Part shown: positions 10,289 through 61,692 of the stretch, piece by piece
Layout: the number at the start of each line of letters is the position of its first letter
Position numbering within the stretch: position 1 is the stretch's first letter
Assembly: GCA_021802825.1 (NCBI GenBank)
Contig: JAJZRG010000002.1
Coordinates: forward strand, 92,740 to 156,739
Direction of reading: 5' to 3'
Length of the DNA stretch: 64,000 nucleotides
Source of the DNA: Chloroflexota bacterium
Lineage (GTDB): Bacteria; Chloroflexota; Limnocylindria; Limnocylindrales; CSP1-4
The notes under the pieces: model-generated
What the model was told of the DNA's origin: nothing
The model's database searches: none
Seen by the model: the letters and a program-made list of their open reading frames with translations, nothing else
Translations under genes and position numbers: made by a program

Positions 10289-12210
<1,922 letters not shown>

Positions 12211-42193: not shown

Positions 42194-43420
42194 TCACGCA
42201 GGCTGGACGATCGAGACCTGGTAGCCGAGCGCCTCGAGGCGGCGGGTGAGCCGGTGGCGCGTGCGCTCGCGGTCGCGCTCGTCGAGGTAGGCGGCCCCGA
42301 GGTCCTGGAACTCGACCCCGCGGGCGAGGACGTGGTACGCGATCACGATGATGTTGTGGGCGACCGCGAAGGTGGCCCGCTTGGCGCCGCGGCGGGCGGC
42401 GAGCCTCTGGTGGAGCGCGCCGAGGTACGTCGGGCTGCGGCCCGCGGCCTTCGCCGCCTCGACGAGCATCGAGCGGAGCCAGGGGCTGCCCTTGCGGGCG
42501 CGGCCCGAGCGCGACTTGCCGGCGCTCTCGTGGTTGCCCAGGCACAGGCCGGCCCAGGAGGCGAGGTGGCCCGGGCTGGGGAAGCGCCCCATGTCCGACC
42601 CGACCTCGGACAGGATCGTCTCGGCCGTCCGGCGCCCGACGCCCGGGATCGTCTGGAGGCGCGCCAGCTCCGCCTCCAGCCCGGCGAGGCGGGACGCGAC
42701 CTCCGCCGACACCTCGGCGACCAGCGCGTCGATGGCGTCGAGGTGCCGCAGCAGGGCCCCGAGCAGGAACCGCTGGTGCGGGCCGACCCGGCCCTCGAGC
42801 GCCTCGACCAGGGAGTCGTGCTTCTCGCGCATGCGCCCGCGGGCGAGCGACGCGATCGCCTCCGCGTCGGCGTCGCCGCCGACCATCGCCTCGAGCATGG
42901 CCCGGCCCGACACGCCGACCACGTCCGATGCGACCGAGGCGAGCTTGACGTTCGCGCCCTCGAGCACCTTCTGGATCCGGTTGACCTCGGCCGTCCGCGC
43001 CTGGAGCAGGGTGGTGCGGTACCGGGTGAGCTCGCGCAGCTCGCGCTCGGGCCGCTCCGGGATGAACGACGGGCGCAGGAGGCCGTGCCGGAGCAGGTCG
43101 GCGATCCACTCCGAGTCCCGGACGTCGGTCTTGCGGCCGGGGACCGCCTTGAGGTGGGTCGCGTTGACGACGACGAGCTCGAAGCCGCCCTCGAGCACGT
43201 TGTACACGGGCTTCCAGAACGACCCAGTGCTCTCCATCGCGACGACCGAGACGCCCGCCCCCGCGAGCCAGTCGGAGAGCTCGAGCAGTCCCCGGCTGGT
43301 CGAGCGGAACGAGGCGACCTCCCGCTCCGGCCGGCCCCGCTGCCCCGGGGTGAGGCGGCAGGCGACGATGACCCGCTTGTGCACGTCGAGCCCCGCGCAC
43401 CGGGCGTGGACGACTTCCAC
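42194..43420 (-). CDS. IS110-family transposase
   Basis: GTG start with GGAGGAG RBS (VEVVHARCAGLDVHKRVIVA...); DEDD-type N-terminal domain and C-terminal IS110 transposase domain (TIPGVGRRTAETILSEVG). Confidence 0.9.
   Translation of the reverse strand: MEVVHARCAGLDVHKRVIVACRLTPGQRGRPEREVASFRSTSRGLLELSDWLAGAGVSVVAMESTGSFWKPVYNVLEGGFELVVVNATHLKAVPGRKTDVRDSEWIADLLRHGLLRPSFIPERPERELRELTRYRTTLLQARTAEVNRIQKVLEGANVKLASVASDVVGVSGRAMLEAMVGGDADAEAIASLARGRMREKHDSLVEALEGRVGPHQRFLLGALLRHLDAIDALVAEVSAEVASRLAGLEAELARLQTIPGVGRRTAETILSEVGSDMGRFPSPGHLASWAGLCLGNHESAGKSRSGRARKGSPWLRSMLVEAAKAAGRSPTYLGALHQRLAARRGAKRATFAVAHNIIVIAYHVLARGVEFQDLGAAYLDERDRERTRHRLTRRLEALGYQVSIVQPA
42194..43420 (-). mobile_element. IS110-family insertion sequence; ends not definable by eye because IS110 elements lack terminal inverted repeats
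   Basis: Single transposase gene immediately upstream of, and divergent from, the SNF2 helicase start. Confidence 0.6.
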
Positions 43421-43681
43421 CGGACGCTCCTCCGCGGCCGCCGGCGGGCGCCCATCGTTCAGAAACTGCTTCGCGTGCTCGCCCCAGGGGAGCGGCAACA
43501 GACGGCGATGCCCGCAGGCGCCCGGGGCCAGGCTGTCACGCGGGCTCGAGGCACCAATCTTGGTGCGGCCTCGTCGACCGGCACGACCGCGGCCCCATTT
43601 TCATACGCGGCGGTGGCGCGCGTGCCATCAGAGCTGTCACCGCAGGCGTTATGGTTGGCCCGAAGTCCGGGTGCTAGCAAC

Positions 43682-46600
43682 ATGCGAGGCGGCCCGGAGG
43701 GGAGGACAGTCAAGATCGCCCGCCTCGAGGACCTGACCAACGGCGCGCTCCTCGCCGGCGTCGTGCCCGACGCCCACGTGACGGTGGTGAACGTCGCCTG
43801 GCACGGCTCCGCCGTCGTGACGCTCACGTACCGGCTTGCGGACGGCGCCGTCGCGGAGAAGCTCCTGTTCCGCGAGGACGAGCCCAAGCTCGTGCTGGTC
43901 GCGGAGGGCCGTCCGTGGTCGTTCGACGGGGACGGCGACGCCTTCCGGCTCGCGTCCGAGGCCAAGCGCATCAGCCTCGCGTACCTGTTCGACCCGTACG
44001 TCGCAGTCTCGACGAGCCTCGTGGAGCCGCTGCCGCACCAGATCACCGCGGTCTACCGGGAGCTCCTCGACCGCCAGCCGCTCTCGTTCCTGCTGGCGGA
44101 CGACCCGGGCGCCGGCAAGACGATCATGACCGGGCTCTACATCCGGGAGCTCCTGGTCCGCGGCGAGCTGCGCCGGTGCCTGATCGTCGCGCCGGGCTCG
44201 CTCGTCGAGCAGTGGCAGCAGGAGCTGGCGGACAAGTTCCACCTCCACTTCACGCTGCTCAGCAACGAGCTCGCCAACGGCTCCCCGTCGGGCAACGTCT
44301 TCGCGGACAACGACCTGCTGATCGCGCGCCTCGACAAGCTGAGCCGAGACGAGGACCTCCAGCTCGCCATCGAGAACGCGCCCGACTACGACCTGATCGT
44401 GTTCGACGAGGCGCACAAGCTCGCGGCGACCCTGTTCGGCGACGAAGTGAAGGAGACCCGGCGCCGCAAGCTCGCCGTCAGGATCCGCGACCACGGCCGG
44501 AACCTGCTGCTCCTGACCGCCACGCCCCACAACGGCAAGGAGGCGGACTTCGAGCTGTTCATGAGCCTCCTCGACCCCGACCGGTTCGCGGGGCACAAGC
44601 GCAAGGCGTCCGAGACCGCCCCGCCCGCATCGAAGACCGACGGCCTGATGCGCCGGCTCATCAAGGAGCAGCTCGTCAAGTTCGACGGCACGGCGCTGTT
44701 CCCGCCGCGCTTCGCCTACGTCGTGCCCTACGACCTCTCGGACGCCGAGGCCGTGCTCTACGAGCGCGTCACCGCGTACGTGCGCGACGAGATGAACCGC
44801 GCCGAGCGGCTCAAGGCGGAGGGGGAGGGGAGGCGCGGCACGATCGTCGGGTTCGCCCTGACGGTCCTCCAGCGCCGCCTCGCCAGCTCGCCCGAGGCGA
44901 TCTACCAGAGCCTCCGCCGACGCCGCGAGCGCCTCGAGCGGACCGTCGCCGAGACGGAACTGCTGCGCCAGAGTGCGGAGGTGCGTCTGCGGATCCCCGA
45001 GCTCGACCAGGTCAGCCTGACGACGATCCGCGAGCTGTCCGAGGAGGGCGACGACGTCGACCCCGACGACGCCACCGCCGCCGAGACCGAGGACACCGAG
45101 GAGACCGCGGTCGACCTCGCGACCGCGGCCACGACGATCGCCGAGCTCCGGACCGAGATCGGCATCCTGCGCGAGCTCGAGGCGCTCGCGGCCGACGTCC
45201 GCCGGCGCGGCACCGACACCAAGTGGACGGAGCTGTCCCGCCTCTTCCAGGAGGCGCCCGAGATGGTCGACGCGGGCGGCGGGCGCCGCAAGCTCGTCGT
45301 GTTCACCGAGCACCGCGACACGCTCAACTACCTCGCCGAGCGGATCGGCACGTTCCTCGGCCGCCCCGAGGCGATCGTCGCCATCCACGGCGGCCTGCCG
45401 CGCGACCAGCGCCGCGCCGCCGAGAGCCGGTTCAAGAGCGACCCGGACGCGATCGTGCTCCTCGCGACCGACGCCGCGGGCGAGGGCATCAACCTCCAGC
45501 GCGCCCACCTGATGGTCAACTACGACCTGCCCTGGAACCCCAACCGGCTCGAGCAGCGGTTCGGCCGGATCCACCGCATCGGCCAGACCGAGGTCTGTCA
45601 CCTCTGGAACCTCGTCGCCCACCAGACCCGCGAGGGTGACGTCTACGCGCGGCTGCTCGAGAAGATCCAGGTCGAGTCCGAGGCCCTGGGCGGCGCCGTG
45701 TTCGACGTCCTGGGCCAGCTCACGTTCGAGGACGGCAAGAGCCTCCGCGACCTCCTCATCGACGCCGTGCGCAAGGGCGACTCGCCCGAGATGCGCCTCT
45801 GGCTGACGGACGTCCTCGACGACGCGCTCGACCAAGACAACCTGCGCGCCCTCCTGCGCCAGCGTGCGCTCGGGGCGAACCTCCTCGACGCGGCGACCGT
45901 CGCCGGCGTCCGCGACCAGCTCGAGCGCGCCGAGGCCGCGAGGCTCCAGCCGCACTACGTCCGCGGGTTCTTCCTCGAGGCGTTCCGGGGCCAGGGCGGC
46001 ACGGTGCGCGAGCGCGAGCCCGGCCGGTACGAGCTCACGAAGGTGCCGGGGCGCATCCGCGATCGCGCCCGCGAGGCCGGCTACCGCCCGGCGGTGCTTG
46101 GCGCGTACGAGCGGATCGCGTTCGAGAAGGACCGGGTCGCGGTTGCCGGGACGCCGCTCGCCGAGTACGTGTGCCCCGGGCACCCGCTCCTCGAGGCCAC
46201 GATCGACCTCGTCCTCCACGAGCACCGCGACCTGCTCCGCCGAGGGGCGCTGCTCGTGGACCCGACCGACCCCGGCGACGAGCTGCGGGCCCTCGTGTAC
46301 CTCGAGCACTCCGTCATCGACGCGCGGCCCAACCGCAACGGCGGCCCTTCGGTCGTGTCGCGGCGCCTCGAGTTCGTCGAGATCGGAGCACTCGACGCGC
46401 GGGGCGCCGGCGCCGCGCCGTACCTCGACTACCGGGGGGCGACAGCCGACGAGCGGACGAAGCTCACCCCGGCGATCGCAGGCCAGCCCTGGCTCGTCGG
46501 GTCGGCGGTCGAGGGTCGAGCGCTCGCGCACGCCATCGAGCACCTGTCCCGCGCGCACCTCGCGGAGGTCCGCGAGCGCACGCTCGACCGGGTCGGCCGT

Positions 46601-47287
46601 ACGCGGCGCGAGGTCGACGCCCGCCTGACCTACGAGATCAACTATTGGGACGGACGGGCGTGGAAGCTCGAGCAGGAGGAGGCCGCCGGCAAGAGCGTCA
46701 AGCTCCCCAGCCTCCAGGCCCGCAGGCGCTCGGACGACCTGCGCGACCGACTGCGCTCGCGCAGCCGCGAGCTCGACCAGGAGGCGCAGGTGGACGCGCT
46801 GCCGCCCGTCGTCGTGGGCGGGGCAATCGTCGTGCCGCAGGGACTCCTCAACCGCCTGTCGGGCAGGCCTGCGCCCGAGGTCGACCTGTTCGCCCGAGAG
46901 ACCCGGCGCATCGAGCTGGCTGCCATGCAGACCGTGTTCGCCGCCGAGCGCGCCGCCGGCCGCGAGCCGCGCGACGTGTCCGCGGACAAGGTGGGCTGGG
47001 ACGTGGAGTCGCGCGAGCCGGGGGGTCGGCTCCGCTTCATCGAGGTCAAGGGCCGCGCCGCGGGCGCGACGACCGTCACGGTGACGCGTAACGAGATCGC
47101 CAAGTCATTCAACGTCCCGGACCGCTGGTACCTCGCCATCGTGACCGTGGACGGCGAGCACGCCGACCCGCCAGTCTACCTGCGCACGCCCTTCCGGCAG
47201 GCGCCGGAGCAGGCGGCGACATCGGTCAACTACGCCATCAAGGAGCTCCTCGAACAGGGGCACATCGTCGAGGTGGGAGGTGTGTAG
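43682..47287 (+). CDS. SNF2-family (superfamily 2) helicase with C-terminal DUF3883 restriction-endonuclease-like domain
   Basis: Motif I LADDPGAGKT, motif II DEAHK, helicase-C region (LATDAAGEGINLQRAHLMVNYDLPWNPNRLEQRFGRIHRIGQ), C-terminal DUF3883-like segment (RLRFIEVKGRAAGATTVTVTRNEIAKSFNVPDRWYLAIV). Start taken at ATG 43682; the longer tracked ORF is an antisense extension across the IS110 gene. Confidence 0.9.
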   Translation: MRGGPEGRTVKIARLEDLTNGALLAGVVPDAHVTVVNVAWHGSAVVTLTYRLADGAVAEKLLFREDEPKLVLVAEGRPWSFDGDGDAFRLASEAKRISLAYLFDPYVAVSTSLVEPLPHQITAVYRELLDRQPLSFLLADDPGAGKTIMTGLYIRELLVRGELRRCLIVAPGSLVEQWQQELADKFHLHFTLLSNELANGSPSGNVFADNDLLIARLDKLSRDEDLQLAIENAPDYDLIVFDEAHKLAATLFGDEVKETRRRKLAVRIRDHGRNLLLLTATPHNGKEADFELFMSLLDPDRFAGHKRKASETAPPASKTDGLMRRLIKEQLVKFDGTALFPPRFAYVVPYDLSDAEAVLYERVTAYVRDEMNRAERLKAEGEGRRGTIVGFALTVLQRRLASSPEAIYQSLRRRRERLERTVAETELLRQSAEVRLRIPELDQVSLTTIRELSEEGDDVDPDDATAAETEDTEETAVDLATAATTIAELRTEIGILRELEALAADVRRRGTDTKWTELSRLFQEAPEMVDAGGGRRKLVVFTEHRDTLNYLAERIGTFLGRPEAIVAIHGGLPRDQRRAAESRFKSDPDAIVLLATDAAGEGINLQRAHLMVNYDLPWNPNRLEQRFGRIHRIGQTEVCHLWNLVAHQTREGDVYARLLEKIQVESEALGGAVFDVLGQLTFEDGKSLRDLLIDAVRKGDSPEMRLWLTDVLDDALDQDNLRALLRQRALGANLLDAATVAGVRDQLERAEAARLQPHYVRGFFLEAFRGQGGTVREREPGRYELTKVPGRIRDRAREAGYRPAVLGAYERIAFEKDRVAVAGTPLAEYVCPGHPLLEATIDLVLHEHRDLLRRGALLVDPTDPGDELRALVYLEHSVIDARPNRNGGPSVVSRRLEFVEIGALDARGAGAAPYLDYRGATADERTKLTPAIAGQPWLVGSAVEGRALAHAIEHLSRAHLAEVRERTLDRVGRTRREVDARLTYEINYWDGRAWKLEQEEAAGKSVKLPSLQARRRSDDLRDRLRSRSRELDQEAQVDALPPVVVGGAIVVPQGLLNRLSGRPAPEVDLFARETRRIELAAMQTVFAAERAAGREPRDVSADKVGWDVESREPGGRLRFIEVKGRAAGATTVTVTRNEIAKSFNVPDRWYLAIVTVDGEHADPPVYLRTPFRQAPEQAATSVNYAIKELLEQGHIVEVGGV

Positions 47288-47338
47288 CCTCGCTGCACGT
47301 GCTGGTTCTCGGCGCGGCCGGAGTCCGGAGGTTGACGC

Positions 47339-48565
47339 ATGAGCCGTGGCGGGCCTGTGGGAGCGGCAACGCGGCAGCGGGTAGCCGCCGCCATCGACGC
47401 CGCCATCACCGCGCATTCGAGCGCGCGGCCATCGGCCCGAGACATTCTCGATTCGGCGCTCGAGGAGTTGCCCGGCTCGTCCGGCGACACCCGCGGCCCG
47501 TGGGTGGGGCGGTCCGCGAGCTTCGATGCCATGCTCGAGGAGGCCCAGTCGCGGTGGCCCGAGGACTTCGAGGCCACGCTGCTCGAGTTCGTCGATGGGA
47601 TGATCTCCGAGCAGGCGGCTCTCGACCGGTTCGCCACTTGGTCGGACAGGCCCTGGGGGACAACCGGTCCGGAGTGGACCGACATTGGGGCAGACATCAC
47701 CGAGATCGGCGTCGAGTGGAGCGGCGGGTTGTCGCCCTTGGCTTCCAGCGACCTCGTGTTCCGGCCTGGCGGCGCGTCACGCACGGAGGTCTACCACGGG
47801 GGATCCCCGGAGACCGAGCACGCATCGTTCGATCTGAGCGCGTTCGAGGATCTGGCGCGGGCGGCCGCCGCGCTGTACGCCCCGCGGGAGCACCCGCGGG
47901 ATCGGGCATCGGAGACAGTGGTCTTTGACGCCGGGGAGACGTACGTCTGGCTCCACCGTGCGCGCAGGCGTGTCCCCTGGCAGGGCTCGGCACTCGGGCC
48001 GTCCCTCGTCAAGCTGTTGAGCGAAGCAGCAGATGGTCTCGACTGGAAGCCAGCGAGCGAGCTGCCATTGAGATGGGACACCGGGCGCCCGGTCACCGGA
48101 GTCGATGGCGGGACCGTTGATTGCCCGATGTGCCGCCAGGGCATCCTCACGGCCAGGTACGGCCGGTTCGGCGAGTTCGTGGGCTGCTCGCGGTACCCCG
48201 AATGCTCCTACGTCAAGAAGGATGGACCGCCGCCGCCCGACCAGCTTGCGTTCGAGGTCCGCTGTCCCAAGAACGACGACGGCCACCTCGTCGCGCGCCG
48301 TGTCCGGCGCACCGGGAACGTCTTCTGGGGGTGCTCTGCCTACCCCAAGTGCGACTTCACGACGAGCGGCGAGCCGACGGGCGCCATCCACGATGCCCAT
48401 GAGGGTGGGCTCGGTGCGGTTGCACGGCACGGCGGCGACGGGACTTGCATGACCTGTGGCGCGGCGGTCGAGCTGCCGTCGACGGTCAGTCCCGGCTTGC
48501 GGTTGCCGGGCGGGCCACCGGACCCGGCAGCACTCTCGCGTCTCCGTCGGTCGAAGAAGCGATGA
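47339..48565 (+). CDS. Protein with two topoisomerase-type C4 zinc-ribbon domains and an uncharacterised N-terminal domain
   Basis: CPMCRQGILTARYGRFGEFVGCSRYPEC and CPKNDDGHLVARRVRRTGNVFWGCSAYPKC fit the Topo I C-terminal zinc-ribbon repeat pattern (C-x2-C ... C-x4-C). Confidence 0.6.
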   Translation: MSRGGPVGAATRQRVAAAIDAAITAHSSARPSARDILDSALEELPGSSGDTRGPWVGRSASFDAMLEEAQSRWPEDFEATLLEFVDGMISEQAALDRFATWSDRPWGTTGPEWTDIGADITEIGVEWSGGLSPLASSDLVFRPGGASRTEVYHGGSPETEHASFDLSAFEDLARAAAALYAPREHPRDRASETVVFDAGETYVWLHRARRRVPWQGSALGPSLVKLLSEAADGLDWKPASELPLRWDTGRPVTGVDGGTVDCPMCRQGILTARYGRFGEFVGCSRYPECSYVKKDGPPPPDQLAFEVRCPKNDDGHLVARRVRRTGNVFWGCSAYPKCDFTTSGEPTGAIHDAHEGGLGAVARHGGDGTCMTCGAAVELPSTVSPGLRLPGGPPDPAALSRLRRSKKR

Positions 48566-48634
48566 CTGGCGACCCGGGGATGCGGCCAGGCGCGCGCCCG
48601 ATGGCGGCCGGATCGGGGTCGGCGGAGGTCAGGC

Positions 48635-51067
48635 ATGGAGCTTAGCGATCGGCTCGCGGGCGCGGTCTGGGGGCACCTGGTCGGCGACGCGGTGGGCGTC
48701 CCGTACGAGTTCAAGCCGGCGTCCTCGATCACGAGCGTCCACTTCGGCGTCGCGGGGACCCACTCCAAGCCGGCCGGGACGTGGAGCGACGACGGCGCGC
48801 TCATGCTCGCGCTGCTCGACTCGCTGCTGCGCGATCGGCAGGACGGCGAGTCGGTCTTCGACACCGCCGACGAGGCGCAACGCTTCCTGGCGTGGTGCGA
48901 CTCGGGCGCCTACACCCCGGGCGGAGAGGGCAGGTTCGACATCGGCGGGGCGACATCGAACGCCCTTGCGCGCCTGCGTAGCGGCACCCCGGCCGAGGAC
49001 GCTGGCGGCACCGGCGAGCGCGACAACGGCAACGGGTCGCTGATGCGGATCCTTCCCCTCGCGCTCGCCGACCGCGACGCGTCCAGCGAGGTCCTCGTCG
49101 AGCGCGCCTTCCGGGCCTCCGCGGTTACGCATGGGCACGTCGTCTCGCAGGTCGCGTGCGCCATGTATGTCCTGATCGCCCGCTACCTCCTGCTCGGCTG
49201 CTCGCGTCAGGCGGCGTTCGAGCGAGCCCACGGAGCGCTGTTCGGCATGTGGGCGCCGGGGGACGACGCCCGGCTCGCGGTCCTCGCGGAGCTGATGGCG
49301 TGGAAGGGCCGGTCGGGCCGCGGCTTCGTCGTCGACTCGTTCTGGTCGGCGTGGGACGCCCTCACGGGAGCCCACGACTACCGGGGGACGATCGAACGCG
49401 CGGTGCGTTACGGGAACGACACCGACACGACGGCCGCGATCGCTGGCGGACTGGCCGGCATCCGCTTCGGCCTGTCGGGCATCCCCGCGCACTGGCTGTC
49501 CGGCATGCGCGGTGCGGAGGTCGTCGCGCCGCTCGTCGCCAGGCTCACGGGGAGCCCCGCAGCGGCGGCCCTCGCAGGCTCGCCGTTCCGCACGGAGGCG
49601 GCGGTGCCGGGTGCGCGGACGTCGGAGAGCCACCCGCTGTACGTCAACTGGGTGGAGTCGTCTGCGGTTCCTGCGGCGGCCGGCTGGACGGGACGCCTCG
49701 GCATGAGCATCCTCGCCGGAAAGAAGGCCCAGGGGATCGCCGGGCTCCACTGGCGTGACGTCGAGACGGACATCACCAGGCTCGCAGAGCACGAGCACGT
49801 GGAAACCTACGTGCTGCTCGTCGAGGATCACGAGCTCGTCGAGACCAAGACGACGGGCATCCCCGATGCGTGCGCCAGGCACGGGATCGACCTGGTCCGG
49901 TTCCCGGTGGCGGACCACGGCGTGCCGGATCACACGGGCGCATACGCCGCCACGCTCGCGGCGGTCGAGGATCGCCTGCGTGCGGGCCGGACCGTGCTCG
50001 TCACGTGCAAGGGCGGCCTCGGGCGGACTGGCACGGCGGTCGCCTGCATGCTCCGCGACGCGGGCCTCGACGCCGAGGAGGCGATGGCGGTCACCCGCCG
50101 CGCCCGCCACGGGGCGATCGACCACGGCGCGCAGGAGGCGTTCGTCCGCTCCTGGGAGCCGGCAGCGCGTGGCACGTCGGCAAGCGGCCCCGGGGGCGCC
50201 GCCGAGCTGGCCGCCGGCGACGGTTTCACCTTTATCGACGGCGTCCTCTCGGCGTACAAGGCTGAGCTCGCTCGGCTCGCCCGAGGCGTTGTCGCCGGGG
50301 CCGCGCCGTCAGCCCGGGACGCCCGGGCAAGGGTGCTCGAGGCCCACGAGCAGGCCAAGGGCCTGTGGGCGAGGTACTCGCCCGAGGCGGCCGCGTACGG
50401 GCGGGTCGTCGAGGCGGGGCAGGGACGGGCCCGGTTCTTCAACGCGCTCGTCGATGCCGCGACGGCGCGGTGGGGCCAGCCGTCCGCGTCGTACTCGGAC
50501 GCCGTCGCCTGGCAGCGGGCTAGCGAGTGGGTCGACCCGGAGCAGGACACGCTCATCATCGACTGGGTCGTAGGCGAGCTGTCGCGCGAGGCCGAGACGA
50601 TCCTCCCGTTCGACCGCTACGAGGGCGGCGGCCGAAAGCCTCTCGGCAGGCCGCGCCAGGGCGACATGACCGCCCGCCACGGCTACGGGCCGCCCGTCTT
50701 CGAGCAGTGCGGCTACACGTGCGTCTACTGCGGGCTCGAGATGGGGGCATCGTTCGAGAACTGGCTCCAGCTCTCGGTCGACCATGTCATTCCGCGCCAG
50801 ATGAAGAACGCAGGGTTCGACCCGGCCCTAGTCGAGGACATCACGAATCTCGTGACCTGCTGCCGCGAGTGCAACGACTTCGGCAACCGATACACCGTGT
50901 CGGGCGAGGCCCCGGCGACCTACGCCGCCTTCTACGATGTTCGCGACCGCGTGTTCAGCGAGCGCAAGGCGATGATCCTCGCCAAGCGCGAACAGGAGCG
51001 CGCGATCTTCGCCAAGCTGCCGGCCGCCGGGCCGGACCGACCGGCCGTGGCCGGGGAGGACGCGTGA
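48635..51067 (+). CDS. Three-domain fusion: ADP-ribosylglycohydrolase + Cys-based (CX5R) protein/dual-specificity phosphatase-like domain + HNH nuclease
   Basis: ARH motifs GAVWGHLVGDAVGVPYEF ... GNDTDTTAAIAGGLAGI (aa 1-300); phosphatase P-loop VLVTCKGGLGRTGTAVACML (aa about 455-472); HNH motif CGYTCVYCG...LSVDHVIPRQ...NLVTCCRECN (aa about 692-748). Confidence 0.8.
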   Translation: MELSDRLAGAVWGHLVGDAVGVPYEFKPASSITSVHFGVAGTHSKPAGTWSDDGALMLALLDSLLRDRQDGESVFDTADEAQRFLAWCDSGAYTPGGEGRFDIGGATSNALARLRSGTPAEDAGGTGERDNGNGSLMRILPLALADRDASSEVLVERAFRASAVTHGHVVSQVACAMYVLIARYLLLGCSRQAAFERAHGALFGMWAPGDDARLAVLAELMAWKGRSGRGFVVDSFWSAWDALTGAHDYRGTIERAVRYGNDTDTTAAIAGGLAGIRFGLSGIPAHWLSGMRGAEVVAPLVARLTGSPAAAALAGSPFRTEAAVPGARTSESHPLYVNWVESSAVPAAAGWTGRLGMSILAGKKAQGIAGLHWRDVETDITRLAEHEHVETYVLLVEDHELVETKTTGIPDACARHGIDLVRFPVADHGVPDHTGAYAATLAAVEDRLRAGRTVLVTCKGGLGRTGTAVACMLRDAGLDAEEAMAVTRRARHGAIDHGAQEAFVRSWEPAARGTSASGPGGAAELAAGDGFTFIDGVLSAYKAELARLARGVVAGAAPSARDARARVLEAHEQAKGLWARYSPEAAAYGRVVEAGQGRARFFNALVDAATARWGQPSASYSDAVAWQRASEWVDPEQDTLIIDWVVGELSREAETILPFDRYEGGGRKPLGRPRQGDMTARHGYGPPVFEQCGYTCVYCGLEMGASFENWLQLSVDHVIPRQMKNAGFDPALVEDITNLVTCCRECNDFGNRYTVSGEAPATYAAFYDVRDRVFSERKAMILAKREQERAIFAKLPAAGPDRPAVAGEDA

Positions 51068-53892
51068 CCCAGGCCCAACCGCTCAAGCGCAAGCTCATCG
51101 AGGTCGCGCTCCCTCTCGAGGCGATCAACGTGGCCTCGGCACGTGAGAAAAGCATCCGTCGCGGGCACCCGTCCACACTTCACCTGTGGTGGTCGAGGAA
51201 GCCCCTCGCTACGTGCCGCGCAGTTCTGTTCGCAAGCCTCGTCGATGATCCGTCGTCGAACCCGGTCAGCTTTCCTACGCCCAAAGCTGTCGAAGTCGAG
51301 CGAACGCGACTCTTCGGAATCATCGAGCGCTTGGTCGAGTGGGAGAACAGCACGAACGAGGCGGTGCTCGAAGAGGCGCGCACCGAGATCATGCGCTCGA
51401 CCGGCGGCAACCCGCCGTCCGTCCTGGACCCATTTTGCGGCGGCGGTTCGATTCCGCTTGAGGCGCAGCGACTTGGCCTGACGGCGTACGCCAGTGACCT
51501 CAACCCGGTTGCGGTTCTGATAACCAAGGCTCTGATTGAGATCCCGCCGACGTTCGCGAGACTCACGCCTGTCCACCCTGACGCGCGCCGCGGCATGGGC
51601 GGCAGCGGAGCCTGGAATGGCGCCACTGGCTTAGCGGAGGACGTCAGGCGATACGCCGCATGGATGCGGGGCGAAGCCGAGCGTCGGATTGGGCACCTCT
51701 ATCCGCCGACGACGCTCCCGAGGGAACTTGGGGGTGGTGAGGCCACGATCATTGCATCAATCTGGGCGCGCACTGTCACGTGCCCGAATCCAGCCTGTGG
51801 CGCCCAGATGCCCCTGACGACGAAGTTTGCGTTGTCCACGAAGAAGGGCAAGGCAGCCTGGGTCGAGCCGGTCATCGATAGGGTTCGGCGAACGGTCCGA
51901 TTCGAGGTTCGCACTGGGACCATGCCGGCCTCGGCGCTGACCGGGACGGCCACTGTGGGAACCGAAGGCAAGAAGGTCCGATCCTCATTCACCTGCCTTG
52001 TGTGCAGCTCAGGCATGGCAGACGGCGCGTACATCGACGGACAAGCTGACGCTGGAGCCATGGGTGCGGTGCCAATGGCGATGGTGGCTGACGGGCCCCG
52101 GGCTCGAGTGTTCCTCGCGCCCGACGATGACCTGAGAAACGCAGTCGCGGCGGCAGTCGAACTCGTGGAGAACCCAGCGGTCGCCGCGAAGCTGCCGGTC
52201 GAGCCTACGCGCGGGACGTTTGCGAGTAATGCGCAGGGACGCTATTACGGGCTCCGACGGTTCCGGGACTACTTCTCGCCGCGACAACTCCTGACACTCG
52301 CGACACTCGTCGATCTCGTAGGCGAGGTGCGCTTTCGCATCCGGGGTGACGCCACAGAAGCCGGTGACCGCGACGCGGTCGACTACGCCAACGCCATCGC
52401 CATGTACTTGGCGCTCGCTATTGATCGGAGCGCGAACACCCTTTGCACCCTAGCCCGGTGGACGCCAGCTCGTGAGCAGACGGTGACGGCCTTTTCTCGC
52501 CAGGCGATTCAGATGGCCTGGGACTACCCGGAGGTCAACCCATTCTCGGAGGCGGCCGGAGGGTACGGCGTCTCCGTTGATGGGATCGTCGAGGCGCTGA
52601 AGAACTTGCCGGCAACTCGGTCCGGTTATGCGACCCAAGCGGACGCCATGCGGCTGCCGTCTGGCCCGAGCGCCTATCTCGTATCAACCGACCCGCCGTA
52701 CTACGACAACATCGGCTACTCGGACTTGTCGGACTTCTTCTACGTCTGGCTTCGGCGCTGCCTGTCCGATGTTGATCCCGATCTGTTCGGCACGGTATTG
52801 ACCCCGAAGTCGGCGGAGCTCATCGCATCGCCTTACCGTTTTGCAGGCAGCAAGGTCAAGGCTGACGAGCACTTCGAGGCTGGACTTGGCGCAGCGTTCG
52901 CCCGAATGCTCGAGCGCGCGGATCCGACGGTCCCGGTAACGATCTACTACGCGTTCAAGCAGTCCGAGTCTGACGAAGATGACGGTGGAGCCGTTGCGTC
53001 GACTGGATGGGAGACGATGCTGGAGGCGCTCTTGTCCGCCGGGTTTGCCATTGACGGTACTTGGCCAATCCGTAGTGAACTCAGCAACCGTATGGTGGCA
53101 AGCGGCACCAACGCCCTGGCGTCCTCGATCGTTCTCGTATGTCGCGGTCGTTCCACTGACGCTGGTATCGCCACCCGCCGTGACTTCGTGGCAAGCCTGA
53201 AGCGGGAGATGCCGCGAGCCTTGCGAGACCTTCAGCACGGCAACATCGCGCCGGTCGACCTCGCTCAGTCGGCCATCGGACCCGGCATGGCCGTGTTCAG
53301 CCAGTACTCCAATGTCCTCGAGCCCGACGGCACGGCAATGCGCGTGCGCACGGCGCTCTCGCTCATCAATCAGGTCCTCGACGAGATCTTGGCCGAGCAG
53401 GAGGGCGAGTTCGACACGGACACGCGCTGGGCCGTTGCCTGGTACGACCAATACGGGATGAAGGACGCGGAGTTCGGCGTCGCCGATGTCCTCGCTCGTG
53501 CAAAGAACACGTCGGTCCAGGGCATGGTCGAGGCCGGCATCGTATCGGCTGGCCGCGGAAAGGTTCGCTTGCTCGCACGCGACGAGTACGACCAGGGCTG
53601 GGACCCGGCGCACGATCGGCGGCTCCCGGCCTGGGAGGCCGCGCAGCGGCTGGTGCACGTCCTGCTGACCTCAGGCGAAGGCCCGGCCGGGGAGCTGCTG
53701 GCGAAGTTGGGTGGCGTCGGCGAGGCCGCCCGCGACCTCGCGTACCGCCTTTACCAGGTGTCCGAGCGCAAGGGCTGGGCCGACGAGGCACGGGCGTACA
53801 ACGCACTCGTCGTGGCGTGGTCGGACCTGTCGCGCGGCGCCGCGGCGCCTGCCGCGTCCGAGTCGACACAGCCGAGCCTCGGGCTCGAGTAG
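51064..53892 (+). CDS. DUF1156-family N6-adenine/N4-cytosine DNA methyltransferase
   Basis: GTG start overlaps the upstream stop (GTGA); N-terminal DUF1156 signature KRKLIEVALPLEAINVASAREKSIRRGHPSTLHLWWSRKPLATCRAVLFASLVDDP; SAM motif I DPFCGGGSIPLEAQRLG; catalytic motif IV STDPPYYDNIGYSDLSDFF. Confidence 0.9.
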   Translation: MTQAQPLKRKLIEVALPLEAINVASAREKSIRRGHPSTLHLWWSRKPLATCRAVLFASLVDDPSSNPVSFPTPKAVEVERTRLFGIIERLVEWENSTNEAVLEEARTEIMRSTGGNPPSVLDPFCGGGSIPLEAQRLGLTAYASDLNPVAVLITKALIEIPPTFARLTPVHPDARRGMGGSGAWNGATGLAEDVRRYAAWMRGEAERRIGHLYPPTTLPRELGGGEATIIASIWARTVTCPNPACGAQMPLTTKFALSTKKGKAAWVEPVIDRVRRTVRFEVRTGTMPASALTGTATVGTEGKKVRSSFTCLVCSSGMADGAYIDGQADAGAMGAVPMAMVADGPRARVFLAPDDDLRNAVAAAVELVENPAVAAKLPVEPTRGTFASNAQGRYYGLRRFRDYFSPRQLLTLATLVDLVGEVRFRIRGDATEAGDRDAVDYANAIAMYLALAIDRSANTLCTLARWTPAREQTVTAFSRQAIQMAWDYPEVNPFSEAAGGYGVSVDGIVEALKNLPATRSGYATQADAMRLPSGPSAYLVSTDPPYYDNIGYSDLSDFFYVWLRRCLSDVDPDLFGTVLTPKSAELIASPYRFAGSKVKADEHFEAGLGAAFARMLERADPTVPVTIYYAFKQSESDEDDGGAVASTGWETMLEALLSAGFAIDGTWPIRSELSNRMVASGTNALASSIVLVCRGRSTDAGIATRRDFVASLKREMPRALRDLQHGNIAPVDLAQSAIGPGMAVFSQYSNVLEPDGTAMRVRTALSLINQVLDEILAEQEGEFDTDTRWAVAWYDQYGMKDAEFGVADVLARAKNTSVQGMVEAGIVSAGRGKVRLLARDEYDQGWDPAHDRRLPAWEAAQRLVHVLLTSGEGPAGELLAKLGGVGEAARDLAYRLYQVSERKGWADEARAYNALVVAWSDLSRGAAAPAASESTQPSLGLE

Positions 53893-53904
53893 GGGGAGCG
53901 ACAC

Positions 53905-56900
53905 GTGGCACTGTCGAACCGCGAGCGCATCGGCCGCATGCTCGATGGGCTCGCCGGCGGGCTCAAGCCGGTCGTGGACAGGATGTTCACCGAGGCGTAC
54001 GGGACGGCGTGGGTGTCGCGCGTCGACGCGGACCGCCCGGCCAACGCCGGGCCGGCGGACCCGAACGACGCCCAGTTCCTGCTCAATGCCGCGTGGTTCC
54101 ACTGGAACGAGACGCTCGGCAGGACGCTCGGGCCGGCCGAGAAGAACTACGTGAACGAGCTCCGCCTGACGCGCAACCGCTGGGCGCACCCGGGCGAGCG
54201 GCCGTTCACCGGCGAGGACGTGTACCGCGCGTACGACACCGCCGAGCGGCTGCTGCGGTCGGTCGCGTCGCCGGCTGCCGACGACGTCGGCAAGGCGAAG
54301 TCGCAGGTCCTGATGGAGAACGCCGTCGCCCAGGCCAAGGACCGCCAGAAGGCGCCGGCCGTCGCCGCCACCGCGGGCGAGCCCGCCAAGGGCCTCGCGC
54401 CCTGGCGCTCCGTCGTCACGCCGCACCCCGATGTCGCCGCAGGGCGGTACCGCCAGGCCGAGTTCGCCGCCGACCTCGCGCAGGTCGCCCGCGGCGAGGG
54501 GGCGAAGGAGTACGTGGATCCGCGCGAGTTCTTCGCGCGGACGTACCTCACAGAGGGGCTGAGGCTCCTGCTCACCGGCGCGCTGCGCCGTCTGGCCGGG
54601 ACCGGCGGCGAGTCTGTCGTGGACCTCCAGACCACGTTCGGCGGCGGCAAGACGCACTCCATGCTCGCGCTCTGGCACCTCGCCGCGGCCGGTGCGTCGA
54701 TCACGTCCCTGCCGGGCCTCGAAGGTGTCGTAGCGGACGCGGGCGTCGCCTCGCTTCCGCGTGTCGCGCGGGCCGCGATCGTCGGCACGTCGCTCTCGCC
54801 GATCACGCCGCGCGTCGTCGAGGGAGCCGAGATCAGGACCCTCTGGGGCGAGCTGGCGTGGCAGCTCGGCGGCCCCGAGGGCTTCGCGCGCGTGGCGGAG
54901 GCCGACCGGGCCGGCGTCCCGCCCGGCGCGGACGCGCTGCGCGGACTGCTGGCCGCCTACGCCCCGGTCGTCGTGCTGGTGGACGAGTGGGTGACGTACG
55001 CCCGGCTCCAGTGGGGCAAGGACGCGCTCCCCGGCGGGTCCTTCGACGCTGCGCTCTCCTTCGCCCAGCAGCTCACCGGCGCCGTGGACCAGGTCCCGGG
55101 CGCCCTGCTCGTCGTGTCGCTCCCGTCGTCGGTGATCGAGGTCGGCGGCGAGGGCGGCCAGAAGGCGCTGGCAGCGCTCAAGCACGTCGTCCACCGCGTC
55201 GACGCGCCGTGGCGCCCGGCCGCGGCGCAGGAGAGCTTCGAGATCGTCCGGCGTCGCCTCTTCGAGCCGATCACCGCGGAGGCGGCGAGGTCGCGCGATG
55301 AGGTCGTGCAGCAATTCTCCGAGCTCTACTCGGCGAACACGGGCATGTTCCCTTCGGACACGAAGGAGAAGTCGTACCTCGAGCGGCTCCGAAACTGCTA
55401 TCCGATCCACCCCGAGCTGTTCGACCGGCTCTTCGACGACTGGTCGACCCTCGAGCGGTTCCAGCGGACGCGCGGCGTCCTCAAGCTGATGGCCGCGGTC
55501 GTCCACACGCTCTGGGAGAAGCAGGACGGCAACCTCCTGATCCTGCCGGGGGCGATCCCGCTGGACGACGGCGAGGTGATGCCGCAGCTCATCCAGTACC
55601 TCGACGACGGCTGGGACGCCATCGTCGAGGGCGATGTCGACGGCACCTCATCGCTGCCGCTCCGGCTCGACCGCGAGAACCACGGGACCTACGGGCGCTA
55701 CTCGGCAGCCCGCCGCGTGGCGCGCACGGTGTTCCTCGGCTCGGCGCCGCTGCCTGCGGCCGCCAACCGCGGCATCGACGACAAGCGGATCCTGCTCGGC
55801 GCGGTCCAGCCCGGAGAGACGCCGGCCACGTTCGGCGACGCCCTCCGGAAGCTCGCCGGCCAGGCGACCTACCTGTACGAGAACGCCGGCCGCTACTGGT
55901 ACTCGACCCAGCCGTCGGTCAACCAGCTCGCGCGCGACCGCGCCGACCAGCAGGCGCAAGACCAGGTCGAGCTCGAGATCGAGGCGCGCCTAAAGAAGGC
56001 GCTCGCGGACCGGCTGCCGTTCCACCGGATCCACGCCGCGCCGCGCGACGCGTCGGACGTGCCCGACGAGGACGAGGTCGCGCTCGTCGCGCTCCGCCCC
56101 GAGCACCCGCACGACGCGAAGGGGCTCGGTTCCAAGGCCCGCGACGCGGCGGCGGCCATCCTGGCGTCGCGGGGCGCGGGCACGCGCGTCAACAAGAACA
56201 TGCTCGTGTTCCTCGCGCCCGACTCCCTCCGCCTGCCGGAGCTCGAGGACGCCGTCCGCCAGTTCAAGGCCTGGTCGTCGATCCTGGCCGACGGGGACGC
56301 CGGCCGACTCAACCTCGACGACTTCGGGCGCGCCCAGGCCAAGTCTCAGCGCGACAGCTTCGACGCGACCGCCACGTCGCGCGTGCCCGAGACGTACCAC
56401 TGGCTGCTCGTCCCCGAGCAGGCGGACGCGCTCTCCCCGGTCGAGCTCAAGGCCGTCAAGATCGCGCCGGGCCCCGACATCGCCGCCCGCGCCGCGGCGA
56501 AGCTCCGCTCCGAGGAGCTGCTGATCACCCGGTACGGCGGCGTCAACCTGCGGCTCGTCCTCACCCAGACGCTGAAGGACTACTGGGGCCAGCACCACGA
56601 AGTGGGCATGCGCGAGCTGTGGGGCTGGTTCGCCCATTACCCGTACCTGCCGCGCCTCCTCGACATGAGCGTCCTCGAGGGCGCGGTCGAGGACGGCGTC
56701 GGGAACCTCCTGTGGCGCTCGGAGACGTTCGCCTACGCGGCGGCTCGTGAAGCTGGCGGGGCGTACATGGGCGTCGTCGCCGGGCGCCGGGCGCCGACGC
56801 CGGTGACCTCGACGAGCCTGATCGTGGACGGCTCGCTCATTCGGGACGCGCCCGCGCGATCGCCCGTGCCGCCCGTGGATGACATGCCGGAGGGCGGACA

Positions 56901-57174
56901 CAAGTCCCCGGAGCCGCCCAAGCCCGCGAGCATCCGCAGGTTCCACGGCCAGGCCGTCCTGTCGGACCCGCGGACGCCGATCCCCGAGCTCCAGAAGCTC
57001 GTCGCCGAGATCATCGGCCCACTTGCCGCCCAGACCGAGGTGAGCCTCACCATCCGCGTGGAGATCGAGGCCGACCACCGCGCCGAGGCCGGTTTCACCG
57101 ACCAGACCATCCGCACCGTGTCCGAGAATGCGCGAACCCTGCGCCTCCGCGACTTCGGCTTCGAGCGGGAGTAG
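53905..57174 (+). CDS. DUF499 (BrxC/PglY-like) P-loop ATPase with N-terminal Swt1-type HEPN domain
   Basis: GTG start after GGGGGAG; HEPN R-x4-H motif LTRNRWAH in the first 110 aa; Walker A TTFGGGKTHSMLAL, Walker B VVVLVDEWVTY; large C-terminal region typical of DUF499 proteins. Confidence 0.9.
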   Translation: MALSNRERIGRMLDGLAGGLKPVVDRMFTEAYGTAWVSRVDADRPANAGPADPNDAQFLLNAAWFHWNETLGRTLGPAEKNYVNELRLTRNRWAHPGERPFTGEDVYRAYDTAERLLRSVASPAADDVGKAKSQVLMENAVAQAKDRQKAPAVAATAGEPAKGLAPWRSVVTPHPDVAAGRYRQAEFAADLAQVARGEGAKEYVDPREFFARTYLTEGLRLLLTGALRRLAGTGGESVVDLQTTFGGGKTHSMLALWHLAAAGASITSLPGLEGVVADAGVASLPRVARAAIVGTSLSPITPRVVEGAEIRTLWGELAWQLGGPEGFARVAEADRAGVPPGADALRGLLAAYAPVVVLVDEWVTYARLQWGKDALPGGSFDAALSFAQQLTGAVDQVPGALLVVSLPSSVIEVGGEGGQKALAALKHVVHRVDAPWRPAAAQESFEIVRRRLFEPITAEAARSRDEVVQQFSELYSANTGMFPSDTKEKSYLERLRNCYPIHPELFDRLFDDWSTLERFQRTRGVLKLMAAVVHTLWEKQDGNLLILPGAIPLDDGEVMPQLIQYLDDGWDAIVEGDVDGTSSLPLRLDRENHGTYGRYSAARRVARTVFLGSAPLPAAANRGIDDKRILLGAVQPGETPATFGDALRKLAGQATYLYENAGRYWYSTQPSVNQLARDRADQQAQDQVELEIEARLKKALADRLPFHRIHAAPRDASDVPDEDEVALVALRPEHPHDAKGLGSKARDAAAAILASRGAGTRVNKNMLVFLAPDSLRLPELEDAVRQFKAWSSILADGDAGRLNLDDFGRAQAKSQRDSFDATATSRVPETYHWLLVPEQADALSPVELKAVKIAPGPDIAARAAAKLRSEELLITRYGGVNLRLVLTQTLKDYWGQHHEVGMRELWGWFAHYPYLPRLLDMSVLEGAVEDGVGNLLWRSETFAYAAAREAGGAYMGVVAGRRAPTPVTSTSLIVDGSLIRDAPARSPVPPVDDMPEGGHKSPEPPKPASIRRFHGQAVLSDPRTPIPELQKLVAEIIGPLAAQTEVSLTIRVEIEADHRAEAGFTDQTIRTVSENARTLRLRDFGFERE

Positions 57175-57177
57175 GGG

Positions 57178-58047
57178 GTGGCCTCAAGACGCGCCCCTGG
57201 GAAGGGCGAACAAAGGCAGGGCCCTCCCATCCTGACCATCGCCCTGGTAGAAGCACAGCGTCTGATTGCCGACCAGCTCGAGCGCGGCAGGCAGATCCGG
57301 GAGCGGCAGATCGGCGATCGCTCGAGTCTTGCGGCAGCGAAGGACGCCTACAACAACTGGGTCGACTACAACCGGGACCTGCTGCGTCGGATCCTGACCA
57401 CGGATGAGCCATCGGACGAGTTCGCGCGGTCGATTCACCTGATGTACGTGCTCGGAGACACGACGCTCGGGGAGGACATCGAGGAGTTCCGATCGGACAT
57501 CGGGACCCACCTCCGACGTCTCGAGTCGATCTCGGACCGACTCCCGCTCTTCGACAACCGGCCGGAGCTCGCCAGCGCCGCCGCACCAGGCACGGAGATC
57601 GACATGAAGCGGGTCTTCGTTGTGCACGGTCACAACCTCGCGGTGCTGGATCGAGTTGTGCGATTGCTGCGCGATCTCGATCTGGAGCCAGTCGTGCTCC
57701 GAGAGCAGGCAAATCAAGGCAGAACCATCATCGAGAAGTTCGAGGCGCACACGGATGTAGCGTTCGCCGTGGTCATCCTGACCGCGGACGACATCGGCGG
57801 AGTCGTCGGCACGGCCCCTGAGGAGTTGCGCCTTCGAGCACGCCAGAACGTCGTGCTGGAGCTCGGGTTCTTCATTGGAAAGCTGGGCAGGCGCTCTGTC
57901 GTGTCGCTACTCGAGCGCCGAGTCGAGGTTCCGAGCGACATCGACGGCGTCCTCTACATCCCGATGGACACCGGTGACTCGTGGCGCCTGCTCCTCGCCA
58001 AGGAGATGAAGGCGGCCGGTCTGCCAGTCGACCTCAATCGACTTTGA
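57178..58047 (+). CDS. TIR-like domain protein (COG4271 / PF10137-type predicted nucleotide-binding TIR-like) with alpha-helical N-terminal domain
   Basis: C-terminal KRVFVVHGHNLAVLDRVVRLLRDLDLEPVVLREQANQGRTIIEKFEAHTDVAFAVVILTADDIGG...RARQNVVLELGFFIGKLGRRSVV matches the TIR-like pattern recalled from CBASS/Pycsar effectors (vFIVHGhD...IIEKFE...faVVLLTpDD...NVifElGfF). GTG start 4 nt after the ATPase stop. Confidence 0.6.
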   Translation: MASRRAPGKGEQRQGPPILTIALVEAQRLIADQLERGRQIRERQIGDRSSLAAAKDAYNNWVDYNRDLLRRILTTDEPSDEFARSIHLMYVLGDTTLGEDIEEFRSDIGTHLRRLESISDRLPLFDNRPELASAAAPGTEIDMKRVFVVHGHNLAVLDRVVRLLRDLDLEPVVLREQANQGRTIIEKFEAHTDVAFAVVILTADDIGGVVGTAPEELRLRARQNVVLELGFFIGKLGRRSVVSLLERRVEVPSDIDGVLYIPMDTGDSWRLLLAKEMKAAGLPVDLNRL

Positions 58048-61084: not shown

Positions 61085-61692
61085 CTGAGTCCTGGCTCAC
61101 CGTCGGCGACGAGCGCTCCTTGGATGCCGCGACACTCCTCGTGGCGGCCAGAGGCGCCAGGGCGCGCCACCAGTACCTCGACGCGGGGTACCGGCGGGAC
61201 GTCGAGCGGGCAAAGGCCGCCAGCGGCACGCAGTTCGCGCCGGGCTGGGGCGATGGCGATCGCCCGGGAGGGGACCTCACGGGGGAGGCTCTGGTCGCGT
61301 TCTGGACCGGACTGATCTTGCGATACCCGAGCGTCGCGGCCGCAACTAGGGCCTGGGCGCCCAAGGGTCGCCGACTGGGCTCATCGGGAGCGGGCGGCGT
61401 CTACCGCACGCTCCGCATCGACGAGTTTGGCGTCCTGGCGACGTACTGGACGGCCGTCGCTCGCGGCCACCAGCCCGCGGGCGACGACCTAGAGGAGCAG
61501 GGCCGGGCGATCGAAGAAGCGCTTGGCCATCCCGTCATCGTCCTGAACTACGCGGCCGGGACGTGGTTCGCCGACCGCGTCTATCTCGGGGCGCTCGACG
61601 ACGCGGCGCGCTGGCCGGAGGTGTGGGCGGCCTGCGACGCCGGGCTCACGGCGTTGCTGGCGGCCGCGACCGCGATCGCGACCGCCCGCTAG
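61085..61692 (+). pseudogene. 3' portion of the IS-disrupted gene (continues the 58112-60003 reading frame across the CTGAG target duplication)
   Basis: Removing the IS and one CTGAG copy joins ...HTTE to SWLTVGDERSLDAATLLVAARG... in the same frame (codon phase 1 on both sides). Confidence 0.55.

Follow-up and report, generated by a model that had tools for sequence, protein, structure and literature searches.

What is a gene that joins an ADP-ribosylglycohydrolase (ARH, also written ARG), a dual-specificity-type protein tyrosine phosphatase (PTP) and an HNH nuclease doing inside a helicase-methyltransferase-ATPase defence operon? The question is raised by a 64-kb stretch of contig JAJZRG010000002.1 from a Chloroflexota bacterium (assembly GCA_021802825.1, positions 92,740 to 156,739), the whole of which is called the window here and is numbered from its first letter. 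The composite explanation that accounts best for the evidence, judged somewhat better than evenly probable, is that the locus belongs to a sub-lineage of the Hma defence system with an HNH accessory coupled to hmaB, the accessory being fused to a module that removes or senses ADP-ribose. All five co-directional genes described in the original prediction were recovered as open reading frames (ORFs) at the positions below, and their order confirmed the two extra genes reported between helicase and methyltransferase.

43682..47287, + strand: hmaA, SNF2 helicase with C-terminal NOV_C/DUF3883 PD-(D/E)XK nuclease
47339..48565, + strand: gene 2, zinc-ribbon gene, occupant of the variable slot behind hmaA
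48635..51067, + strand: gene 3, ARH-PTP-helical linker-HNH fusion gene, 810 aa, translationally coupled to hmaB
48659..49492, + strand: ARH/ARG domain of gene 3, aa 9-286 (PF03747, E 8.6e-60)
49748..50146, + strand: Cys-based dual-specificity phosphatase domain of gene 3, aa 372-504 (PF22784 PTP-SAK, PF22785)
50213..50593, + strand: five-helix linker (MID) of gene 3, aa ~527-653, lineage-specific
50603..51034, + strand: HNH nuclease module of gene 3, aa 657-800 (PF01844)
51064..53892, + strand: hmaB, DUF1156 N6-adenine-type DNA methyltransferase (PADLOC, Pfam)
53905..57174, + strand: hmaC, DUF499 ORC/Cdc6-like ATPase with an N-terminal Swt1-type HEPN domain at 53935-54264

A PADLOC search, a check that the original prediction had proposed, returned full-length matches to HmaA, HmaB and HmaC. 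HmaA scored 1527 bits over profile positions 2-1170 of 1176; the protein has the Pfam domains SNF2-rel_dom, Helicase_C and NOV_C (DUF3883), and the motifs GAGKT143, DEAH242 and D1107...E1121-V-K1123 are present. HmaB scored 1101 bits and carries DUF1156 (PF06634, 96 bits, E 1e-27), with motif I (VLDPFCGGG, aa 120) and motif IV (DPPY, aa 543). HmaC scored 976.5 bits and combines HEPN_Swt1 and DUF499 (PF18731 and PF04465) with an HEPN RNRWAH motif (Rx4H) at aa 90-95, Walker A GGGKT at aa 246 and Walker B VVLVDE at aa 356. The three core genes are co-directional; two genes separate hmaA from hmaB, and hmaC follows hmaB directly. By these profile matches the trio is an Hma system (HmaA/HmaB/HmaC), equivalent to an HEPN-fused Type-1 BREX-related (BR) system, and the identities of the genes of the locus are held with high confidence. 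Pfam profile searches also backed the SNF2/DUF3883, zinc-ribbon, ARH-phosphatase-HNH, DUF1156 and HEPN-DUF499 assignments made beforehand. Each of genes 2 and 3, hmaB (gene 4) and hmaC (gene 5) is preceded by a GGAGG-type Shine-Dalgarno sequence, and the GC content at third codon positions (GC3) is 0.78-0.96 across all five ORFs.

Hma (helicase, methylase, ATPase) was named in 2021 by Payne et al. from 1,638 instances in 26 phyla (PMC8565338). The DUF499-centred Type-1 BR system is its 2026 renaming, reported from 2,446 taxa of which 1,370 have an N-terminal HEPN fusion on the ATPase, and a restriction-modification (RM)-like mechanism has been proposed for it (NAR 2026, PMC12839542). HmaA alone protects against T4 by means of its helicase and PD-(D/E)XK nickase (PMC11232893). 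The locus shares with these systems the three full-length core proteins, the gene order A...B-C, the C-terminal PD-(D/E)XK nuclease of HmaA, the DUF1156 N-terminus of the methyltransferase and the N-terminal HEPN domain of the ATPase. It differs in the extra HNH gene coupled to hmaB and fused to ARH-PTP; the BR paper refers to HNH nucleases near or within some loci in general terms only (PMC12839542). The claim that the architecture as a whole is undescribed could not be upheld, the trio being a named system and the embedding of further genes being published for 62.7% of 1,485 Hma systems (Payne 2024) and, in an independent study, for ~66.5%.

The placement of the trio as BREX-related, not BREX, was borne out. 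No PglZ, BrxA or Lon-like BrxL was present among the locus proteins or the scanned neighbouring ORFs (Pfam, PADLOC), as had been stated beforehand. Canonical BREX (types 1-6) is excluded by the missing PglZ, by a score of just 17 bits for the BrxC model, and by a methyltransferase that matches HmaB, not PglX. BREX type 3 has a homologous SNF2 helicase (PADLOC BrxHII, 275 bits, partial) and an analogous ATPase and N6-methyltransferase, but the locus lacks PglZ, its ATPase is of the DUF499 type and not BrxC/DUF6079, and its methyltransferase has a DUF1156 N-terminus. With respect to DISARM, the helicase matched DrmD partially (PADLOC 356 bits; NCBIfam 341 against a cut-off of 610), and DrmB and DrmC were not found at the locus with PADLOC and NCBIfam. 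MADS was considered as the parent system and rejected: the operon of the MADS preprint comprises eight genes, mad1-8, with no mention of DUF499, DUF1156 or Hma, and the sole local link is a weak mad1 (helix-turn-helix, HTH) match on an upstream ORF.

The product of gene 3 matched ADP_ribosyl_GH, the dual-specificity-type PTPase family PTP-SAK (E 2e-10) and HNH (E 8e-5) in Pfam. Within the ARH domain the metal-site residues S51-D52-D53 and D262-T-D264-T265, together with T165-H166, were invariant in 31 homologues. In the same set the CX5R loop of the phosphatase (C458...R464) was invariant and D427 nearly so. The conserved residues of the HNH module are C696/C699, D716-H717, N738, C742/C743 and C746-N747. 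The closest solved or curated relatives of the ARH domain are Lmo0067, Thermus ARH, Tri1 and DraG; those of the phosphatase in the PDB are archaeal and bacterial PTPs and DUSP23, members of the rhodanese-phosphatase superfamily. Tri1 and DraG are arginine-ADP-ribose hydrolases, and are the best curated matches of the domain, which keeps their binuclear-metal motifs. The scores are nevertheless far under the equivalog cut-offs (105 against 490 bits and 82 against 337), no cognate transferase (Tre1 or DraT) lies nearby, and here the ARH domain shares its polypeptide with a phosphatase and a nuclease.

The linker is confidently predicted to form a five-helix bundle (pLDDT 84), for which no informative structural neighbour was found. 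An identification of the linker as DUF6508 was rejected, as it has no similarity to either of the DUF6508 fusion partners mentioned below. A 154-aa protein, P0377, matches the linker only (query residues 212-333, 54% identity); the linker may thus occur as a separate gene, or P0377 may be a fragment on a short contig.

The three-domain ARH-PTP-HNH fusion was found in eight distinct loci (designated by L numbers apart from the window), in each of which it lies directly upstream of hmaB. A form of 810-812 aa with the helical linker is encoded in the window, L002, L003 (frameshifted), L004 and L097, and a 671-aa form without linker in L084/85, L086 and L101. Where the upstream side is visible it holds hmaA or one small variable gene. 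The loci have diverged, HmaB being 62-80% and HmaA 72-86% identical. In the window the stop codon of gene 3 overlaps the GTG start of hmaB in the sequence GTGA at 51064-51067, an overlap already noted in the original prediction. The same 4-bp overlap of HNH stop and hmaB start occurs in seven of the seven distinct loci that have gene calls and direct abutment (the window, L002, L003, L004, L084, L086 and L091).

The HNH family to which the module belongs comprises 106 clusters, mostly of standalone proteins of 150-165 aa that are at most 83% identical to the gene 3 module. Standalone HNH genes (~160 aa, 68-83% identical) stand between hmaA and hmaB in L091-94, L095, L098, L099 and L109. The order in L091-94 is hmaA, a 197-202-aa gene, HNH, hmaB and hmaC, with the HNH stop overlapping the hmaB start; their HmaA is 93% and their HmaC 89-97% identical to those of the window. 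Comparison of DNA in blocks divided the operon into hmaA, a variable slot, the ARH-PTP-linker part (absent in L091), HNH with the 5' end of hmaB, a hypervariable centre of hmaB, and the 3' end of hmaB with hmaC. The fusion junction is exact and gene 3 is modular in origin: DNA homology to the standalone-HNH locus L091 begins at window position 50606, in the first residues of the HNH module. A sub-lineage of Hma emerges from the comparison that has a small HNH gene, coupled to the methyltransferase gene, as its fourth member; it is probably a Chloroflexota lineage.

Proteins of the types ARH-PTP-DUF6508 and DUF6508-HNH both exist, linking the ARH-PTP and HNH families independently of Hma. More distant members of the HNH family adjoin MmeI-like, type-I-like or Eco57I-like methyltransferases, and also helicases. 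A viral origin of the family was considered and rejected, since the search of IMG/VR viral contigs yielded only three HNH matches, all weak and generic. The 671-aa and 810-aa fusions could have had one origin followed by losses, or two origins; both are compatible with the tree of the HNH module. The fusion appears to be rare, because none of the best 150 matches in a library clustered at 50% combines its phosphatase and HNH stretches, a result that gives no count.

The HNH-coupled Hma sub-lineage, and especially the ARH-PTP-HNH fusion, is apparently undescribed. The fusion is absent from the PADLOC v2 models. An ARH or PTPase is not mentioned in the text, or in part of the supplementary tables, of the Hma-embedding preprint and the BR paper, and ADP_ribosyl_GH, PF03747 and Zn_ribbon_Top1 were not found in the portion of the published supplementary tables covered.

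A central part of hmaB, ~51850-52680 (to ~53110 in comparison with L004), has no DNA similarity to any sister locus, unlike the ends of the gene, which are 74-84% identical to them. It coincides with a dip in GC content to ~0.65 in a window of 72% GC. This variable segment presumably encodes the target-recognition region, and the pattern fits a recent swap of that region; a swap would imply that closely related Hma systems switch specificity.

A setting for the ARH and phosphatase domains is provided by Iyer, Burroughs, Anantharaman and Aravind (2022), who in section 3.8 describe ARG domains fused or adjacent to a phosphatase of the rhodanese-phosphatase superfamily (PMC9503650). These ARG-centric systems have no partner transferase, use variable effectors including nucleases and helicases, and are predicted by comparative genomics to reverse phage-imposed ADP-ribosylation. 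Those listed come from actinobacteria, planctomycetes and proteobacteria, with Nudix/WYL regulators, chaperones and restriction endonuclease effectors, and ~42% have a Nudix- or WYL-HTH repressor (PMC9503650). The text of that paper mentions neither an HNH fusion nor DUF499/Hma loci. Gene 3 resembles the ARG-centric systems in its intact-motif ARG domain, its fused rhodanese-superfamily phosphatase and the lack of a partner transferase; no ADP-ribosyltransferase or sirtuin was found among the called ORFs scanned (~35.6-63.3 kb). It differs in its probable Chloroflexota lineage, in having HNH as effector and in being built as a whole gene into an RM-like Hma operon. The neighbouring ORFs scanned contained neither a Nudix nor a WYL domain.

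Phage ADP-ribosyltransferases are widespread, T4 Alt, ModA and ModB being among many. To our knowledge no bacterial counter-measure to phage ADP-ribosylation has been demonstrated, and such counter-measures stand as comparative-genomic predictions only. For the mechanism proposed here we infer every biochemical step. HmaB would mark host DNA by N6-adenine methylation, as in the published model of the family, and unmarked DNA would be recognised and attacked by the ORC-like ATPase HmaC and the SNF2 translocase and nickase HmaA, with the HEPN domain of HmaC as a possible last-resort RNase. The HNH module would serve as an auxiliary or second-strand nuclease of the Hma complex. The ARH-PTP part would detect or remove ADP-ribose marks placed by phage ADP-ribosyltransferases on host or defence proteins, most plausibly protein arginine-ADP-ribose in view of the similarity to Tri1 and DraG, and the phosphatase would dephosphorylate the product released by ARH. 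The outcome would be either a restriction complex protected from phage sabotage or a nuclease licensed during infection. A specific ADP-ribose role of ARH-PTP is offered tentatively. That gene 3 is a built-in anti-anti-defence or infection-sensing arm, which recognises and erases phage ADP-ribose marks and so keeps or switches HNH/HmaA active, is a doubtful proposal.

The position of gene 3 between hmaA and hmaB, a known insertion hotspot, could be explained in another way, namely that it is a self-contained single-gene defence comparable to Septu, BrxU/GmrSD-like genes or HEC, in which ARH-PTP senses and HNH cuts independently of HmaABC. Hma loci are documented hotspots for independent defence genes: up to three genes are permitted between each Hma gene pair (Payne 2024), the hotspot has yielded the new defences HEC-01 to HEC-09 and 145 PDCs, and seven Hma-embedded defence genes worked alone when cloned. 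Independent systems also occur in or beside the sister operons, including Gabija-like genes (L004), CBASS (L084), GmrSD (L086) and McrBC (L091), and a sensor joined to a nuclease in a single polypeptide is a common defence design. Gene 3 shares its nested position, as does gene 2, with the HEC and PDC genes. Neither resembles them in sequence: in PADLOC gene 2 matched no HEC/PDC model, and gene 3 gave only weak HNH matches (PtuB at most 19 bits, PDC-M01B 15 bits). The fusion also differs in distribution, since it lies inside Hma in eight of the eight distinct loci with visible context; embedded systems are mainly found outside Hma, just 0.7% of Septu systems being embedded (Payne 2024). Autonomy is further opposed by the 4-bp stop/start overlap with hmaB that is kept across divergent loci, and by the bare 160-aa HNH, which occupies the same position and has no sensor of its own. 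An autonomous gene 3 is considered unlikely, if to be reckoned with.

Two of the sister loci that carry the fusion or the standalone HNH hold other cargo. In L084/L085 a second, unrelated 267-aa HNH gene lies between hmaB and hmaC (14851-15654), in addition to the fusion, and a CBASS operon (SMODS, E2, TIR-SAVED) is directly upstream of hmaA. In L095 two DUF488 genes and a gene with a DuOB domain are inserted in the same hotspot between the standalone HNH and hmaB (10474-12151).

The occurrence of ARH, PTP and a DNA nuclease in one polypeptide also invites a reading in which ARH-PTP acts on nucleic acids, stripping ADP-ribose or related sugar-phosphate adducts from phage DNA or RNA, at bases or ends, and dephosphorylating them, so that modified genomes become substrates for HNH/HmaA in a type IV-like manner. 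BREX and Hma loci often embed type IV-like enzymes directed against modified phage DNA (GmrSD/BrxU). ARH3 can remove ADP-ribose from phosphorylated DNA and RNA ends, and some Cys-phosphatases act on polynucleotide ends. The ARH domain, however, has its greatest similarity to Tri1 and DraG, which hydrolyse arginine-ADP-ribose on proteins, and not to ARH3; no DNA-binding or reader domain was detected in gene 3 beyond HNH, the linker being a featureless helical bundle; and solitary ARH-PTP genes have no nucleic-acid-related context. Action on nucleic acids is accordingly regarded as improbable.

Returning to the HNH-accessory explanation and its ADP-ribose arm, several observations count against them. 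The ARH-PTP core of ~500 aa is a large and almost wholly Chloroflexota family, with at least 816 protein matches and 558 or more loci among GTDB representative genomes, and Hma stands beside it in one (L004) of the best 80 of these genome loci. About 99% of ARH-PTP homologues are solitary, with neither Hma nor HNH nearby, and the solitary contexts examined were unremarkable; being mostly solitary, ARH-PTP may have a housekeeping role and have simply been co-opted. In L091, whose Hma system is the nearest to that of the window (HmaA 93%, HmaC 89% identical), ARH-PTP is missing, which implies that it is dispensable for Hma. In a neighbour-joining tree of the short HNH module, which was weakly resolved, the two forms of the fusion lie apart, with a standalone HNH nested within one of the two. 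It has been argued in print that most genes found embedded in Hma work as systems of their own. We know of no phage transferase that targets Hma and of no experiment on the ARH-PTP module in any context; the module could act on protein, on nucleic acid or on a small molecule.

Some relatives of ARH-PTP are fused or adjacent to ARPP-1, a further likeness to the ARG-centric systems, and ARPP-1 or DUF6508 lies downstream in three of the best 80 genome loci. Two overlapping genes, of 144 aa and 487-517 aa, lie directly 3' of a solitary ARH-PTP gene in three related metagenomic contigs (L088-L090). This pair may be a conserved partner of solitary ARH-PTP.

Gene 2 raises the further possibility that genes 2 and 3, which are adjacent, co-directional and 69 bp apart, form a functional two-gene cassette in which the zinc ribbon delivers ARH-PTP-HNH to single-stranded DNA (ssDNA). 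The protein has two Zn_ribbon_Top1 domains (Pfam). Over residues ~255-400 it shares 55-74% identity with the C-terminal ribbons of topoisomerase I from Chloroflexota and with free-standing Zn-ribbon proteins that bind ssDNA; ssDNA binding is a property of topoisomerase-type Zn ribbons. The distribution of the two genes argues strongly the other way. Homologous neighbourhoods, to which the original prediction had appealed as a test of whether both genes recur, contain the ARH-PTP-HNH gene in eight loci; the zinc-ribbon gene is missing from the other seven of these and from all standalone-HNH loci, and nothing in the sister Hma loci compared matches it at the DNA or protein level. The slot after hmaA holds an unrelated 226-aa gene in L003/L004 and an unrelated 197-202-aa gene in L091-94, and is empty in L002, L084, L086, L098 and L099; no mutual similarity was found among the slot genes of the sister loci. 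Among 5.8e9 proteins the sole full-length match to gene 2 was an identical sequence, which was also the only homologue of aa 1-250, a part without a sequence match in the PDB. A cassette thus has very little probability, and the treatment of the two genes as one unit was not sustained. The best reading of gene 2 is that it occupies the Hma hotspot in this strain only and is not a partner of gene 3. With a GC3 of 0.84 and GGAGG ahead of its ATG it looks expressed. A single-sequence AlphaFold2 model (pLDDT 38) was unusable.

Should the anti-anti-defence reading of gene 3 be true, the locus would be the first concrete bacterial immune system directly countering phage ADP-ribosylation, and RM-like systems could carry their own protection against post-translational sabotage. 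The fusion is a compact, clonable test case for the 2022 ARG-centric prediction. The sub-lineage with its methyltransferase-coupled HNH gene is relevant to how Hma cuts DNA, because all that has been shown so far is nicking by HmaA. Should the fusion prove to be just another nuclease that is embedded in Hma and works autonomously, the locus would be an Hma island of the ordinary kind.

The insertion sequence (IS) elements and TIR-like gene that had been reported next to the locus were found, and the surrounding features are as follows.

42194..43498, - strand: IS110-family transposase, upstream boundary of the locus (Pfam DEDD_Tnp_IS110 and Transposase_20; GC3 0.96)
57178..58047, + strand: TIR-domain gene (PADLOC PDC-S35, Pfam CAP12-PCTIR_TIR)
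58112..59161, + strand: ORF without family assignment 3' of the TIR gene; the coding signal leaves the frame after ~59160
59994..61094, no strand assigned: IS5-like insertion sequence, downstream boundary of the locus (30-nt terminal inverted repeats, DUF4096)

The TIR gene starts 4 bp after the hmaC stop (CAP12-PCTIR_TIR, E 1.4e-34), and its protein matches PDC-S35 with 228 bits (residues 50-289 on profile positions 21-262 of 264). Its CAP12/Pycsar-effector-type domain and its proximity suggest a pair with ARH-PTP in NAD/ADP-ribose signalling, in which TIR makes or consumes a signal that ARH-PTP degrades, both domain families acting on NAD/ADP-ribose chemistry. No TIR homologue was found, however, in the other fusion-bearing loci or in any sister locus compared; the position after hmaC is taken there by Gabija-like genes (L004), a GmrSD_N-domain gene (L086) or other genes, with McrBC in L091. 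The match to PDC-S35, a single-gene candidate family, likewise speaks against a pair, which is most improbable, and the TIR gene is probably a single-gene defence candidate in its own right. No clear Shine-Dalgarno sequence precedes the annotated GTG start, and the PDC-S35 model aligns only from residue 50, so that the true start may lie downstream.

Between the TIR gene and the IS5-like element, a 525-aa ORF (58112-60012) is not one gene. Its coding signal shifts at ~59160 to the frame of the ORF 59107-60012, which reaches the left end of the element. The ORFs in this stretch gave no match, 58112-59161 having been searched in Pfam, PADLOC, NCBIfam and the PDB. The stretch may be a disrupted or frameshifted gene.

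At the upstream boundary the hmaA frame is open as far as 42188, and the PADLOC HmaA model begins to align at residue 511 of that longer ORF. An N-terminal extension from 42188 was rejected, the minus-strand transposase occupying the stretch and the HmaA model starting at 43682. Position 43682 is taken as the true start because the IS110 transposase fills 42194-43498 and the HmaA profile aligns from there. Upstream of the IS110 element, amid overlapping ORFs of doubtful coding status (38.7-42.1 kb), the ORF 39545-40669 on the minus strand has a C-terminal HTH_17 domain (excisionase/MerR-like), and is the ORF with the weak mad1 match in PADLOC (24 bits).

A scan for an operon promoter and terminator gave nothing exceeding shuffled expectation. 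There are no tRNA genes within the window and hence no tRNA integration site; the remainder is ordinary chromosome with a cytochrome oxidase operon, histidine kinases, transporters and a glucodextranase. The inverted repeats of the IS5-like element are 90% complementary, and an ORF for the N-terminal part of a DUF4096 transposase lies at 60031-60450. From ~60410 the coding signal is in another frame, the GC peak of the ORF 60410-60949 falling on codon position 2, and this change of frame inside the element suggests a programmed frameshift.

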